Shown piece after piece: positions 1,885-8,337 of a stretch of DNA of 64,000 nt (position 1 is the stretch's first letter; every line of letters begins with the position of its first letter). Position numbers and translations under genes: made by a program. The notes beneath the pieces were generated by a model. It saw only the letters and a program-made list of their open reading frames with translations. It was not told the DNA's origin and did no database searches. Source of the stretch: an uncultured delta proteobacterium (GTDB lineage Bacteria > Myxococcota > Myxococcia > Myxococcales > Myxococcaceae); contig CAVYSY010000032.1 of assembly GCA_963771175.1 (NCBI GenBank), forward strand, positions 32,001 to 96,000. Reading direction: 5' to 3'.

Positions 1885-2475
1885 TCACTTCACCAGGCGC
1901 AGGTGGCCGCGACGCGGAGGCGACGGATCATCCTTCGGTCCCTCGGGCTCGGTCGCGGCGGCGACGGGAGCAGGCGCGGGCACGGCGGCAATCGGGGTGG
2001 CGACGGGCTCCTCCTGGGGCTGGGGCTGGGGCTGGGGCTCGAGCCTCGCCACCTCGCGGAGGATGGCCCGGGGACGCTCCACCGGCGAGGCCGACTGCTC
2101 CCCCGCGGGCTCCGGCAGCGTCGCCTTGGACGTCACCATCGTCTGCTGGATGAGCTCGGCCGGCATGTCGTCCGGGTACATCCAGAATTCCTTCGTCGAG
2201 TGGCTCGTGATGGCGAACAGCGCCGACCAGGGCACCGCCACCGTGAACCGGCTCCCCGAGAAGCTCAGCGTGCAGCGAATGCCCCACTCGCCCACGGTGA
2301 GATCCGGGGGATCGAACCGGTAGGACAGGTTGAGACGCAGGTGGGCCTCGCTTCGCAGCGAGGTCGGCACGATGACTCCCGGACGACGTGCGTCCAGGTG
2401 GATCATCACCATGCCTTTGTCGAGTGCGGCCATCAGCCGCTCTTTCTTCTCCGGACCCTTCTTGTCCATCGACAT
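1885..2475 (-). CDS. sspB: ClpXP specificity-enhancing factor SspB (stringent starvation protein B)
   Basis: LDARRPGVIVP, LRLNLSY, TLSFSG..FTVAVPWSALFAI; acidic/Pro linker; C-terminal ClpX-binding-like tail RGHLRLVK. Confidence 0.85.
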   Translation of the reverse strand: MSMDKKGPEKKERLMAALDKGMVMIHLDARRPGVIVPTSLRSEAHLRLNLSYRFDPPDLTVGEWGIRCTLSFSGSRFTVAVPWSALFAITSHSTKEFWMYPDDMPAELIQQTMVTSKATLPEPAGEQSASPVERPRAILREVARLEPQPQPQPQEEPVATPIAAVPAPAPVAAATEPEGPKDDPSPPRRGHLRLVK

Positions 2476-2500
2476 GCGCCTCGGGGTGAGGATGGGCGAT

Positions 2501-2986
2501 TCAGCGACGACGCATCGCCCGATCCATCTCCCGCTTGGTCTCCCGTTCCTTGATGTCCTGCCGCCGATCCTCGTGCGTCTTACCGCGACAGAGGCCCAGC
2601 TCCACCTTCGCCCGGCCGTTCTTGAAATACAGCACCAGCGGGATGATGGAATAGCCTCGCTCGCGCACCTTGGTCGTCCAGCGGTCGATTTCCTCGCGGT
2701 GCATCAACAGCTTGCGGCCGCGCAGGGGCTCGTGGGTGAAGAAGCTGGAGGGGTTGTAGGTGCCAATGTGGGCGTTGAGCAGATACAGCTCATTGCCCTT
2801 GGGTAGCGCATACGCGTCCGAGAGGTTGGCCGTGCCAGCCCGCAACGCCTTCACCTCGCTGCCCGAGAGCAGAAGGCCGGCCTCGACCTTCTCGTCCACG
2901 GAGTAGGCGGCGCGCGCCTTGCGGTTCTCGGCGATGACCTTGATGCCGGGTTCGCCCGTCCCGCCCTTGCCCTTTCCACCCGCCAT
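2501..2986 (-). CDS. smpB: SsrA-binding protein SmpB
   Basis: [48 protein letters not shown]. Confidence 0.97.
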
Positions 2987-2999
2987 ACGCTCGCGTCCT

Positions 3000-3854
3000 C
3001 TAGCCTCCGATGGGCTGATTGTCGATCAGCCGAGTGGTACCGACGAAGGCCGCCACCAGCAGCCGTGCCGGCTGGCCTGGAGTCACGGCCGACAGGGGGG
3101 TCAGCGAGGTGGCGTCCATCAACTCCACGTAGTCCTCGCGAAGACCCGCCGCCTCCAATTCGCGACGCACCGCACCAACCAGGGCCTGGGCCTCGCGCAT
3201 GCCTTCCTTGTAGAGCGCCTGGGCCGCCGACAGGCCTCGCGACAGGGCGAGCGCCCGCTTCCTGTCCTCTGGGGACAGGTAGGCGTTGCGCGAGCTCAGG
3301 GCCAGCCCGTCCGCCTCGCGGATGGTGGGCATGCCGACGATCTCCACCCCCAGGTTCAGGTCGCGCTCGAGGGCGCGGATGACCTGGAGCTGCTGGTAGT
3401 CCTTCTCGCCGAAGAGGGCCACGTGGGGCTTGAGGATGCACAGCAGCTTCGTCACCACCGTGGCCACGCCCCGGAAGTGGCCGGGCCGGCGCGCGCCGCA
3501 CAGGCCCTGGCTCACCTTCTCCACGTCCACGTACGTCTGGAAGCCCGGCGGGTACATCTCGGCCGGCTCGGGGGCGAAGACGGCCTCCACGCCCGCGCTG
3601 GCGCACCTGGCCAGGTCCCCCTCGAGGTCCCGCGGGTAGCGCGACAGGTCCTCGGTGGGACCGAACTGGGTGGGGTTGACGAAGATGGAGGTCGCGACGA
3701 CGTCGGCCCGGCCGCGTCCCTCGCGCATCAGCGAGAGGTGGCCGTCGTGCAGGTAGCCCATGGTGGGCACCAGCGCCAGCCGGCGGCCCGAGCGGCGAAT
3801 GGACTCCGCCCAGGCGGCGGTCTCGGCGACAGTGCGAAGGACGAGGGGCGCCAT
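3000..3854 (-). CDS. panC: Pantoate--beta-alanine ligase
   Basis: [53 protein letters not shown]. Confidence 0.97.
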
Positions 3855-3857
3855 GGA

Positions 3858-4755
3858 CTAGACCGGAACTCCGTAGACGGGGCCCAGCTTCTCCGCGCCC
3901 TCGGCGGCGACCTCGGCCTCGGGGTTGACGGGCACGAGCCGGATGGGCTTGGACTTGAAGGAGTGCTCCTCGTCCGGGAAGGTGCCCGCGCGCACCTCGG
4001 CGAAGTAGGCGCCCGCCGCCTCGGTCATGGAGCCGTGGAGGTTGGCGTAGCGCTTGACGAACTTGGGCTTGAAGTCCGGGTTCATCCCCAGCAGGTCGTA
4101 GCAGACCAGCACCTGGCCGTCGCAGTATTTGCCCGCGCCGATGCCGATGGTGGGGATGGTGAGGCGCTGGGTGATGGTGCGCGCCAGCTCCAGCGGCACG
4201 CCCTCGAGCACCAGCGAGAAGCAGCCGGCGCGCTCCAGCGCGAGGGCGTCCTCGAGAATCTTCCGGGCGGCGTCCTCGTCGCGGCCCTGCACCACGTAGC
4301 CGCCCATCTTGTGCACCGACTGGGGCGTGAGGCCCAGGTGGCCCATGACGGGGATGCTGGCGCGCACGATGGCGGAGATGACGTCGGCGAACTCGGCGCC
4401 GCCCTCCAGCTTCACCGCGCCCACGCCGCCCTCCGCCACCAGCCGGCCCGCGTTGCGCACCGCCTCCTCCACCGAGACCTGGTAGCTCATGAAGGGCATG
4501 TCGCCCACCACGAGCGCCCGCTTCGTCCCGCGCATGACGGCGGCGCGAGTGGTAGACCATCTGGTCCATCGTGACCGGGAGCGTGGAGTCGTGCCCCTGG
4601 ACGACCATGCCCAGGGAGTCACCCACGAGCAGCACGTCCGCTCCGGCTTCATCGAAGACCCGGGCGAAGGTGGCGTCGTAGGCCGTGACCATGCAGATCT
4701 TCTGGCCGCTCTGCTTCTGGCGCTTCAGCGTGTGGATGGTGACCTTGTCCTTCAC
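3858..4755 (-). CDS. panB: 3-methyl-2-oxobutanoate hydroxymethyltransferase (one frameshift near 4545)
   Basis: N-half [19 protein letters not shown] in one frame; C-half [37 protein letters not shown] in another. GGAGG SD before the GTG. Confidence 0.95.
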
Positions 4756-4863
4756 GGTTCACCTCCTATGGCGGTGAGGGTTCGTCCTGCGGTTGCGTGG
4801 ATGAACACCCCTCGCCGTCCCCGGAGGGGCTCGCCGGAGGTGACCATCCACGGGGGGACTCTA
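4756..4863 (-). promoter_or_regulatory. Structured panB 5' leader with anti-SD and alternative stems; putative -10 TAGAGT
   Basis: SD GGAGGUGA (4766-4759) is complementary to UCACCUCC (4843-4836). A competing 8-bp stem CGUGGAUG/CAUCCACG (4852-4845 with 4803-4796) is present. TAGAGT at 4863-4858. Confidence 0.55.
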
Positions 4864-4919
4864 ACGCCCTTGGACGCGCCGCGGGGACTTCTCGTGAGGG
4901 CAGGCGGCCAGACGAGCCA

Positions 4920-5567
4920 CTATCCAGCCCGCTTGCTCGCGGTCGGGAGGTAGTGCTGGGAACCCTGACCCGCCCGGTCGATGGCACCCAGCAGCCCCTT
5001 CAGGTCGCCCTCGTTGTTGACGAAGTCGATGTCCGAGGTGTCCACCACCAGCAGCGGCGTCTCCGTGTAGTGGGAGAAGAACTCGTTGTAGGCGTGGACG
5101 AGCTCCTCCAGGTAGCCAGCGTCGAACTGACGCTCGAACTCCCGGCCGCGCTTCTTGATGCGGTAGAGCAGCACGTCCAGCCGCGCCTGCAGGAAGATGA
5201 CGAGGTCCGGCCGGGTGACGCGTGGGCTGAGCGCCTCGAAGACGCGGTCGTAGAGGGCCAGCTCGTGCGAGTCCAGCGTCAGGCACGCGAAGATGCGGTC
5301 CTTGGCGAACAGGTAGTCGCTGACCGTCACCGAGTTGAAGAGGTCCTGCTGGATCAGCTCCTGCTGCTGCCGGAAGCGCGAGAGCAGGAAGAAGAGCTGC
5401 GTCTGGAAGGCGTACTTCTGCCGGTCCTCGTAGAAGTTGGCGAGGAAGGGGTTCTCCTCGAATCGCTCGAAGATGCGCCGCGCCCCGAAACGCTCGGCGA
5501 GGATGTTGGAGAGGCTCGTCTTGCCGACGCCGATGGGCCCCTCGACCACGATGTAGCGGTTGTCCAT
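4920..5567 (-). CDS. Deoxynucleoside kinase (dAK/dGK family)
   Basis: IVVEGPIGVGKTSL P-loop, ENPFLANFY, FQTQLFFLLSRF, PDLVIFLQA, RIKKRGR. Confidence 0.93.
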   Translation of the reverse strand: MDNRYIVVEGPIGVGKTSLSNILAERFGARRIFERFEENPFLANFYEDRQKYAFQTQLFFLLSRFRQQQELIQQDLFNSVTVSDYLFAKDRIFACLTLDSHELALYDRVFEALSPRVTRPDLVIFLQARLDVLLYRIKKRGREFERQFDAGYLEELVHAYNEFFSHYTETPLLVVDTSDIDFVNNEGDLKGLLGAIDRAGQGSQHYLPTASKRAG

Positions 5568-5771
5568 CCCCTTCGAGACCTCCGACCTCTAACGAAAGCC
5601 ACGCCGCGCCCTTCCGGGCCGGCAGCGGGTCGCGGATATAGACCATGGGCGGGGCGAGCGGGCAATGATCCGGCACGAGGCGCGCTCTCCACGCTTGACG
5701 GCCCGGTGGGGGTCCACTACCAGAGACGCACGCGCGGTGCGAGACACGTGGGCGCGCAGGGACCGAGGGGG

Positions 5772-6053
5772 ATGAATCGAAGGCAGCGGGCGAAGACGGT
5801 CATCGAGCTGGAGCCACGCCGGGCCACGTCCACCCAGACGGCCCAGGTTCCCGCGAAGGTGGTGGAGCCCGATCCACTCTACGGCGTGGCCCTCCTCAAG
5901 ATGGCCCTGGAGCTGAAGCGCCGACAGGACGGCTCGCCGGAGGAGATCCTCCGCGACGTGCTCGCGCGCATGCGGCTGCCCGAGGACGAGTTCCGCGCGT
6001 GGCTCTCCCAGCAGGGCGGGCTGTTGCAGTCCCTGGGCAGCGGAGAGCACTGA
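5772..6053 (+). CDS. Small hypothetical protein (~93 aa)
   Basis: ATG after GAGGGG; MNRRQRAKTVIELE...PDPLYGVALLKMALELKRR; codon usage typical of the window. Confidence 0.6.
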   Translation: MNRRQRAKTVIELEPRRATSTQTAQVPAKVVEPDPLYGVALLKMALELKRRQDGSPEEILRDVLARMRLPEDEFRAWLSQQGGLLQSLGSGEH

Positions 6054-6065
6054 GCGGCGCTGGAG

Positions 6066-6476
6066 CTACTGCGCCGCCACCCACGGCTGGAGCGCCGCAT
6101 CCACCGCGTTGCCGAGAGACTTGCACAACGAGTACTCGGTGCGCAGCCGCTCGACGGGCGTGGCCGCCTCGAAGCGCCGCGTCTCGAAGAAGAGCGCGTA
6201 CACCACCTTATCGCCCACCTTCGAGCGGATGCCGAGGTGGTCCCCCTGCACGTCCATCTGCGGCAGCAGCATCCGCTCCAGCGAGCGGTAGACGCGGGCC
6301 ATGTCCCGGGTGGCGCCCACGAAGGCGTTCTCGTCGATCAGAGGAATCGCACTCGGATCGCCCCAACGCAGCAGCACCTCCCCATCGGGGCGGGCGAACA
6401 CCGCGTACAGCACGCCGAACCGGTTGAGTACCGGCTCCAAGGCCTCCAATGGCAGGGGTCTCATCAGTCCTCCCAA
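6066..6476 (-). CDS. Hypothetical protein (possible Roadblock/longin-like fold)
   Basis: Clean 136-aa ORF directly downstream of rsmA; VLYAVFARPDGEVLLRWG strand-turn-strand pattern. Confidence 0.55.
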   Translation of the reverse strand: MGGLMRPLPLEALEPVLNRFGVLYAVFARPDGEVLLRWGDPSAIPLIDENAFVGATRDMARVYRSLERMLLPQMDVQGDHLGIRSKVGDKVVYALFFETRRFEAATPVERLRTEYSLCKSLGNAVDAALQPWVAAQ

Positions 6477-6488
6477 GCCAGATTACCT

Positions 6489-7319
6489 CTACCCTGCAAT
6501 GGGTCCGAGCGAACGCTCGATGGCGGCGAACTCCCGGGCGAGAGCGTCTCCGCGCGACGGGTGGGGTCGATGCCGGCCGTCTCCAGCGCTTTCTGGAGCT
6601 GCTCCAGCGTACCGAGCGTCTTGTCCGACTTGAGCGAGTTGATGAGCGTCTTGCGCCGCTGGGCGAAGCCCGCCTTCACCAGCCGGATGTAGCGCGCGCC
6701 GTCCACCACCGGGGCCAGGGGCTGGGGCCGCCGCGTCAGCCGCAGCACCGCCGAGTCCACCTTGGGCGGCGGGTGGAAGCGCTGGGCGTCGATGTCGAAG
6801 AGGTGCTCGGACTCGAAGTACAGGCCCAGGATGGCGGTGAGCAGGCCGTAGTCGCGCCCACCCGGCTCGGCCGCGAGCCTGTCCACCACCTCCTTCTGGA
6901 GGGTGAAGACGGCGCGCGTCACATGCTCGCGCTGCTCCAGCACCTGGAAGAGGATGGAGCTCGTCAGGTGGTACGGGAGGTTGCCCGCCACCTTCAGCTC
7001 GGGGACACCGGCCACCTCGGCGAAGTCCACCGTGGCCGCGTTGCCGGACACCACGCGCACCCCGGGGATGGCCTCCTTCTCCAGCACCGCGATCATGTCG
7101 CGGTCCTTCTCCACCGCGGTGACGCGCGCGCCCGTGGCGGCGCAGGAAGCGAGTCAGGTGCCCGAGGCCCGGGCCCAGCTCCACCACCGGCTCGCCCTCG
7201 CGCAGCTCCAGCGCGTCGGCGATGGCCTCGAGAATCTGCGGGTCTCCGAGGAAGTTCTGCCCCCAGCTGTGCTTGGCCCTCAGGCCATGACGCTGGAGGA
7301 TGTCACGTGGCGTATCCAC
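6489..7319 (-). CDS. rsmA: 16S rRNA m6,2A1518/1519 dimethyltransferase (frameshifted)
   Basis: KHSWGQNFL, VELGPGLGHLT, AGNLPYHLTS, TLQKEVVDRL, FHPPPKVDSAV, GFAQRRKTL, RRAETLS across two frames. Confidence 0.93.
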   Translation of the reverse strand: MDTPRDILQRHGLRAKHSWGQNFLGDPQILEAIADALELREGEPVVELGPGLGHLTRFLRRHGRARHRGGEGPRHDRGAGEGGHPRGARGVRQRGHGGLRRGGRCPRAEGGGQPPVPPDELHPLPGAGAARACDARRLHPPEGGGGQARGRAGWARLRPAHRHPGPVLRVRAPLRHRRPALPPAAQGGLGGAAADAAAPAPGPGGGRRALHPAGEGGLRPAAQDAHQLAQVGQDARYAGAAPESAGDGRHRPHPSRGDALAREFAAIERSLGPIAG

Positions 7320-7337
7320 TCGCGGCTCCCTTCACCT

Positions 7338-8337
7338 TCACATGCGCCAGGCCGGGTCCGCGGACAGGTTGAAGTCTCCGCGCAGACCCCGGCGCCAGGC
7401 CTCATAGCCCGCCACGGCGATCATCGCGCCGTTGTCCGTACACAGCCGCACCGGCGGCAGGAAGAGCTTCAGGCCCCGCTCCTCGGCGCGCTCCTGGCAC
7501 AGCGAGCGCAGCCGCGAGTTGGCCGCCACGCCCGCCGCACACCACCAGGCGATTCAGGCCCAACCGGCGCGCGGCGGCGACGAACTTCTTCGACAGCGCG
7601 TCCGCCACGGCCTCCTGGAAGGAGGCGCACAGGTCCGCCAGCGCCTGCCCCTGGGGCACGCCGTGCTTGCGCACGTGCTGCAGCACCGCCGTCTTCAGGC
7701 CGGAGAAGGACCAGTCGAAGTTCTCCGAGCCGGGCAGCGCGCGGGGGAAGCGGATGGCCTCCGGGTTCCCCTTCTGCGCGAGCTGGTCGATGGGCAGCCC
7801 GCCCGGGTACGGCAGGCCGAGGATGCGCGCCGTCTTGTCGTAGGCCTCGCCGGCGGCGTCGTCGCGGGTGCTGCCCACCAGCCGGTAGCGGCCGTAGTCC
7901 TGCACCTCGTAGAGGCTGGTGTGGCCTCCGGAGACGACGAGCCCGAGGAACGGGGGCTCCGGCGCATCCTCGAGCAGCCGGATGGCGAGCAGGTGCCCCT
8001 CCAGGTGGTTGGCCCCGACGAAGGGCTTGCCGGTGGCGAGGCTCAGCGACTTGGCCACCTGCACGCCCACCAGGAGCGCGCCGATGAGGCCGGGCCCGGA
8101 GGTGACGGCGATGAGGTCCACGTCGTCGAGCGTCTTGCCGGCCCGGGTGAGGGCCTCGTGCAGGACGGGCATCACCTGCACCACGTGGTTGCGGCTGGCG
8201 AGCTCCGGCACCACCCCACCCCAGCGCCGGTGGATGTCCACCTGGGTGGAGACGACGTCGGAGAGCACGCGCCGACCGTCCTCCACGAGGGCGGCGGCGG
8301 TCTCATCACAGGAGGTTTCGAGTCCGAGTACGAGCAA
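7338..8337 (-). CDS. tsaD: tRNA N6-adenosine threonylcarbamoyltransferase (frameshift near 7530)
   Basis: [66 protein letters not shown]. Confidence 0.96.

Follow-up and report, generated by a model that had tools for sequence, protein, structure and literature searches.

The leader in front of panB and panC in the DNA analysed here, a stretch of 64,000 nucleotides from an uncultured member of the Myxococcaceae (the window), raised the question whether these pantothenate genes are controlled on their mRNA, and by which structure. A first-pass annotation had proposed a translational switch, in which an anti-SD near the 5' end is either hidden in a stem (fold A, ON) or paired with the SD (fold B, OFF). 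The pan motif, which occurs upstream of pantothenate genes, is listed as RF01749, and Weinberg et al. 2010 (PMC2864571, in the part available) suggested a dimeric protein for it. According to the accessible part of PMC9971707, a CoA riboswitch is expected but none is known, and the way in which bacterial mRNAs respond to CoA or pantothenate is described as an open gap. Here we compared the leader with its relatives among Myxococcota. The annotated idea that panB has a conserved regulatory RNA, akin to the pan motif and most likely acting on translation, was supported. Comparison showed two tandem hairpins of the same shape, H1 and H2, of which H2 is predicted to bury the ribosome site.

Locus and 5' end of the leader

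The leader is situated on the minus strand between the kinase gene and panB, with panC next downstream (Table 1). The panB frame is broken by one extra base near 4545, a single 1-base gap against the nearest relative (L002), and this base is probably an assembly error. Frames with a shifted look were seen in panB itself (3858-4755) and in ksgA-like and tsaD-like genes (6464-7372, 7402-8337), and coaX was fragmented into pieces (G000:C50:158326-158945); single-base indel errors are probably numerous across the assembly. Since other genes of the assembly also look broken, the panB frameshift was taken as an assembly error and relatives were used throughout. The named PanB relatives closest to the window were those of Archangium, Cystobacter, Corallococcus and Myxococcus. 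Downstream, smpB begins 13 nt past panC and an SspB-family gene comes next (window 1885-3854). A single transcript, with the leader in front, may comprise panB, panC and smpB.

Table 1. Features of the panB leader and its neighbouring genes, in window coordinates.
Feature	Position	Strand	Remarks
Deoxynucleoside kinase family gene	4920..5567	-	Pfam PF01712, E 4.7e-41; upstream neighbour of the pan leader
-10-like box TAGAGT	4858..4863	-	TAnnnT box before the H1 core in relatives
H1 basal extension, 4852-4845 with 4803-4796	4796..4852	-	MFE of 5' prefixes from 4800 on
H1	4806..4842	-	Outer stem 4842-4837/4811-4806; apical CCCC/GGGG
Anti-SD UCACCUCC of the first-pass annotation	4836..4843	-	Overlaps the H1 5' arm; lineage-restricted
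Linker, C/A-rich near the SD	4767..4795	-	Base composition over 135 leaders
SD GGAGGUGA, 5' arm of H2	4759..4766	-	Full complement of the genome's own 16S 3' tail
H2	4734..4766	-	SD pairs with panB codons 4-8; GUG start opens the loop
panB, ketopantoate hydroxymethyltransferase	3858..4755	-	PF02548; GUG start at 4755
panC, pantoate-beta-alanine ligase	3000..3854	-	PF02569, E 3.6e-103, ORF list; begins 3 nt past the panB stop

The -10 box TAGAGT of the first-pass annotation was in place at 4863-4858, and 82 of 110 leaders had a TAnnnT 8-39 nt ahead of the H1 core, compared to 6 of 107 control windows; a consensus promoter scan gave no sigma-70 site. We infer from the sequence that transcription starts near 4852, which would thus place H1 at the 5' end of the mRNA. 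A terminator scan found 0 sites between the kinase gene and the leader, so read-through from the kinase gene is possible. RNA-library contigs (4 runs) over the relative L167 covered the leader, one of low depth starting 11 nt past the -10 box and three running through from the upstream gene; contigs of this kind cannot prove a start or transcription. In the available part of the M. xanthus Cappable-seq paper (PMC8844925), four supplementary files contained no match to panB terms.

Upstream of the SD the linker is rich in C and A (16 nt, mean over 135 leaders: C 0.45, A 0.26, G 0.16, U 0.12) and, judged by this composition, is a candidate ribosome standby site. A leader peptide was considered and rejected: stop codons overlap the SD and start, yet leader lengths vary freely.

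Hairpin 1

Before any model was built, the first 30 leaders were found to have a common core, consisting of CGGYG-A, a variable hairpin and a second CGGYG-A. In the window the strings that had been annotated as stems were confirmed on the minus strand: CGUGGAUG at 4852-4845 with CAUCCACG at 4803-4796, CACCUC at 4842-4837 with GGGGUG at 4811-4806, and the cap CCCC-UCC-GGGG at 4829-4819. What had been described as an internal loop flanked on either side by GGCGAG is better read as a helix of 5 bp (CGGCG 4836-4832 with CGGCG 4817-4813, central G.G) between two adenines, A4831 and A4812, bulged on opposite strands, with G4830.A4818 at the first apical pair. The basal extension was variable among relatives.

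Conservation of the stem in relatives was verified by a geometry scan, which found the bulged hairpin in 90 of 119 panB leaders, compared to 20 of 476 shuffled and 1 of 119 reverse-complemented sequences. Two-sided changes occurred at 14 of 14 H1 pairs (173 cells in 47 rows chosen for spread), and the pairing score was 0.69 versus 0.20 when shuffled and at most 0.20 when slid; the rows were picked by geometry, and these counts are therefore partly circular and describe variation rather than providing an independent test. The only invariant bases in these 47 rows, picked by that same geometry, were the two bulged A. A reading of the repeats as a DNA site was rejected, as the spacing of the half-sites varies and the changes on both sides track RNA pairing.

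A structure model of H1 only (R1) was made from an alignment that included the row of the window. With 150 of about 14,000 candidates scored in the genome, the best match was H1 of the window with 37.4 bits, and the next one, with 25 bits, was situated inside a coding frame. R1 listed no start-spanning H2 at E<=1.

Hairpin 2 and the coding sequence of panB

The leader of the first-pass annotation was real, but the element was larger than annotated, and H2 had been missed as the annotation stopped at the start codon. In H2, GGA 4766-4764 pairs with UCC 4736-4734, GGUGA 4763-4759 with UCACC 4742-4738 and CC 4757-4756 with GG 4744-4743; A4758 and A4737 are bulged and the loop, 4755-4745, begins with the GUG start. 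The core, 5 bp between two opposed bulged A, is the shape common to H1. H2 alone had a folding energy of -12.0 kcal/mol, and its pattern occurred a single time in the genome. In viral contigs 3 pattern matches were found, 0 of them on panB.

The string GGAGGUGAACC before the panB start was nearly invariant among leaders, because it pairs with panB codons 4-8. Base invariance in H2 is confounded by the SD and the codons. Compensation was followed in 136 leaders grouped by their RBS string alone to avoid circularity, 135 of them with the Val-Thr pair. SD position 7 and the third base of the Val codon formed G-C in 122 leaders, G-U in 4, A-U in 5, U-A in 1 and G.G in 3. In this genome GTG is the preferred Val codon (0.67), and GTT and GTA are used at 0.02 each. 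Changes in the SD were matched by synonymous changes of the Val codon; this compensation concerns one pair in 6 related genomes, and since 34 of 55 tree branches could not be resolved, independent events are uncounted. The Thr codon of H2 was ACC in 133 leaders, ACT in 2 and ACG in 0, compared to 264 ACG and 322 ACC among control Thr codons of the same genes.

Over 43 distinct rows, 98.1% of the H2 cells paired and 6 two-sided changes were seen at one pair. Mismatches were present in four genomes, three with G.G and one with C.A at the neighbouring pair. The arms were constant and the loop measured 8-13 nt. The bulged A pair at fixed spacing was kept in 135 of 135 H2, the 3' bulged A doubling as the first base of an Ile codon. 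In the leader L094 the first A of GAA was replaced by G (A-U to G-U) and the second A was kept, which fixes the register of H2 at 5 bp; a 4-bp register was dropped in favour of it. Opening the ribosome site cost a median of 14.9 kcal/mol, versus 8.4 in leaders without hairpins. A perfect H2 survived 272 of 2000 synonymous resamplings (14%), so a single genome alone proves nothing about H2.

Survey of panB leaders

The survey comprised 219 distinct Myxococcota panB leaders, among which one family dominates; duplicates, loci with less than 120 nt upstream or without panB, and the leader L181 were left out. A start-spanning H2 was present in 135 leaders, a hairpin just before the SD in 35 and a distal hairpin only in 22, and 27 had none, so that the geometric scan found some hairpin in 192 of 219. 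In 170 leaders (135 spanning, 35 proximal) the hairpin overlaps or abuts the ribosome site. Leaders with H2 span 10 family handles in the tree, and H1 was also present in 122 of the 135, with the tandem order kept. The 35 proximal-hairpin leaders resemble canonical pan, in which the hairpin is placed just before the SD.

Two other arrangements were observed. In L068, L190 and L191 panB comes after the kinase gene with neither leader nor hairpins, and L068 and L190 have ACG as the Thr codon; we regard these as natural losses, useful for a search for the binder by gene content. In one branch of the phylum (L124, L125, L209, L212, L215, L217, L221, L223, L224 and L232) a single, very uniform hairpin was located 42-59 nt before panB (97 in L212), and a second hairpin was not detected there. 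This branch represents a third wiring of the motif.

Folding of the leader and the anti-SD

As annotated, UCACCUCC at 4843-4836 is complementary in 8 Watson-Crick pairs to GGAGGUGA at 4766-4759. Fold A was the MFE structure of 4863-4750, but taken alone its stability was within chance (z -1.75, a level reached by 13 of 200 shuffles). The SD, claimed to be free in fold A, was paired to a local UCACC in the fold of 4863-4750, and when H1 was fixed and the coding sequence included it paired with panB codons 4-8 with P about 0.97. The labels ON and OFF were reversed in sign, as the conserved two-hairpin fold buries the SD.

Fold B was competitive in the window, at 1.4 kcal/mol from the ensemble, but this leader was the only one of 86 to come within 2 kcal/mol of the ensemble (median penalty 12.5 kcal/mol). 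Likewise the 8 of 8 Watson-Crick pairs were unique to this genome among the 86 leaders, and the anti-SD switch therefore fails as a general mechanism. The SD paired with the coding sequence in 82 of the 86 leaders.

Upstream complementarity gave a mean z over 135 leaders of -0.18 for the SD arm and -0.44 for the H2 3' arm. The corresponding values were -4.5 (the extreme of the 135) and -3.6 in the window genome, and -2.0 and -2.8 in the nearest relative L002. The 5' end of the window leader (4834-4852) is complementary to both arms of H2, more weakly in L002; we regard this match as chance or as a recent extra conformation. A conserved anti-H2 strand was also rejected as a general mechanism. 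In the window species and L002 the anti-SD may be a local add-on.

The equilibrium fold of 4852-4715 was neither H1 nor H2, and H1 together with H2 was about 4 kcal/mol above the ensemble. H1 was the MFE structure of prefixes ending at 4800-4760 and at 4740, not of those ending at 4812, 4750, 4734 or 4725. A model based on the two hairpins therefore needs H1 to be trapped during transcription.

Relation to the pan motif

The search of 3500-6500 with Rfam cmscan, which the first-pass annotation had suggested for the pan motif, gave no pan match; four chance matches were listed and no family fitted. RF01749 (gathering cut-off 36.2 bits) had no match at E<=10 in 3500-6500 nor in the genome. Across 151 genomes of the phylum none was over the cut-off, and 5 weak matches were found, 4 before panB and 1 before panD.

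The likeness to pan is one of geometry. In the available part of the published alignment (PMC2864571) both hairpins have two opposed bulged A, 5 bp apart, and the rows include single-hairpin forms and G.A at the first apical pair. H1 and H2 share the stem with its two opposed bulged A at 5 bp, the tandem arrangement and the placement at panB, H1 being wholly upstream and H2 reaching codons 1-8; the G.A at the first apical pair is found in H1. The geometric scan and R1 recovered held-out canonical pan hairpins, two of them identical to published rows, and R1 scored such hairpins at 13-28 bits. The differences lie in sequence and position. The symmetric CGGYG-A/CGGYG-A core of H1 with its central G.G was seen in no published row of the part available, and H1 shares only C...G-A with the canonical consensus, with UCC/GGA in relatives. 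The letters of H2 also differ from the consensus of the canonical 3' hairpin (CCUgG-A-UCc ... gGA-CcGGG-A-CaG). In canonical pan the SD lies beyond the 3' foot of hairpin 2, 8-22 nt from the start, whereas in the variant it forms the 5' arm of H2, the 3' arm is made of coding sequence and the loop contains the start codon. On these comparisons, H1 and H2 are best classed as tandem hairpins with pan geometry, presumably a variant of pan rather than a scored member of RF01749.

In the literature searched, mostly without subscription papers, no paper was found on a pan binder, a pan ligand or a coding-overlap form; in the available parts of PMC5670726 and PMC4342826 pan matches were merely tabulated.

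Other pantothenate genes

Hairpins of the pan type were found before unlinked panD in 16 of 30 loci. In other Myxococcota families they preceded stand-alone panD (L254-L280), in tandem in L278-L280 and all below the Rfam cut-off. The panD gene of the window genome (C7) had no hairpin.

The exact pattern of the canonical hairpin was followed in 120 metagenome loci, which led to panB (49), panC (13), panD (9) and others (41); 8 were too short. Among the 32 of the 41 others that were scanned there were 19 Rossmann/DUF2520, 10 peptidase S58 and 3 ABC ATPase genes. DUF2520 is presumably linked to ketopantoate reduction and S58 to beta-alanine supply. The hairpin stands directly before the peptidase S58 genes in L286, L300, L302, L316, L324, L337, L339, L358, L368 and L380, which suggests that these enzymes act in pantothenate or beta-alanine supply. 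Before the ABC ATPase genes (L329, L364, L398) the pattern possibly marks a pantothenate uptake system.

Discussion

The reading that we favour, with moderate confidence, is that the leader is a tandem translational operator of the pan type, which an oligomeric protein clamps shut once pantothenate or CoA is in adequate supply. H1 would fold at the extreme 5' end of the mRNA and in H2 the maximal SD would be paired with panB codons 4-8, leaving the start codon in the loop. Without the binder, ribosomes would load before H2 forms or compete with it; the late 3' arm (about 20 nt past the start codon), the full match of the SD to the 16S tail and the C/A linker would favour such loading. With enough of either compound, an oligomeric protein of two-fold symmetry would recognise the bulged-A shape of H1 and H2, using H1 as its anchor and clamping H2, and panB and the closely following panC would be OFF. 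Shape reading suits better than a ligand pocket because H1 has no invariant bases beyond the two A, and since little but shape is kept in a two-fold symmetric motif, the binder is more probably a protein than a metabolite. From the hairpins before unlinked panD and other pantothenate-supply genes, the signal seems to act in trans.

Candidates for the binder are PanB, PanC and CoaX (type III pantothenate kinase). PanD is disfavoured, as it was missing from 14 of the H2-bearing genomes listed (92-100% completeness). CoaX was present in 136 of 151 genomes and was not found in three hairpin-bearing genomes (91-93% completeness); being near-universal, its presence does not discriminate.

Small hairpins whose bulges are read by a protein dimer near a signal for initiation or termination are known from the MS2 and PP7 coat operators and the LicT/SacY RAT hairpin. 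The likeness of the pan leader to these, a small bulged hairpin at an initiation or termination signal, is a mechanistic analogy only: sequences and genes are other, and the binder is known there but putative here.

The first alternative is a riboswitch, in which the bulged adenines let H1 and H2 dock around pantothenate, pantoate, phosphopantetheine or CoA, H2 being stabilised thereby. Its attraction is the strict association with pantothenate-supply genes, including those for ABC ATPase and peptidase S58, along with the tandem order kept in 122 of 135 leaders and the fact that no candidate protein stands out. A CoA riboswitch is also expected and none known, according to the accessible part of PMC9971707.

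The tandem-hairpin guanidine-II class, which proved to be a riboswitch, offers a precedent, with two similar small hairpins, a variable linker and a narrow set of downstream genes; its loops contain conserved ligand-binding bases, however, whereas the loops are free here and only the bulged A are kept. With two invariant A only in H1, every stem pair varying, loop and linker lengths that vary (40-137 nt from bulge to start) and single-hairpin forms in existence, we consider a riboswitch unlikely. A conserved, mutually exclusive alternative fold of the anti-SD platform kind was not found among the leaders; direct occlusion by H2 needs none. More specifically, the pan pair could be the missing natural pantothenate/CoA riboswitch, with four bulged adenines docking around the ligand and stems free in sequence, and in Myxococcales half of the aptamer would be contained in synonymous codons of the controlled gene; this version appears a little less likely again.

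A second alternative is a fixed damper: H2 would set a low, constant level of PanB without sensing, and H1 would protect the 5' end or be a relic. The stability of H2 alone (-12 kcal/mol) would agree with this, and the literature searched contained no regulation data. A damper needs no two bulged A at fixed spacing, yet these were kept in every H2 and repeated in H1, and the same shape stands before panD and other supply genes, which makes this explanation improbable. Recognition of the hairpins by a nuclease or other general factor, with an effect on mRNA stability and not on initiation, would agree with H1 at the inferred 5' end and with the 22 leaders that have a distal hairpin only, but we think it very unlikely given that in 170 of 219 leaders the hairpin overlaps or abuts the ribosome site. 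The anti-SD model, in which the H1 5' arm swaps between H1 (ON) and the SD (OFF), fits this genome and to some degree L002, but it is highly improbable in view of its penalty in the other leaders, the mean z near zero and the SD that stays paired with H1 formed, and the window was itself picked because of the anti-SD match.

The orphan pan motif itself was known, and what appears new is its coding-overlap form. This variant reveals the sign and level of control directly, as folded H2 hides both the SD and the start codon, and it reduces the motif to its shape, since the stems vary freely. Most Myxococcota copies are missed by Rfam, with no genome of the 151 over the cut-off compared to hairpins in 192 of 219 panB leaders. 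In these bacteria a regulatory RNA constrains synonymous codons, with compensation between the SD and the codons of the gene that it precedes.
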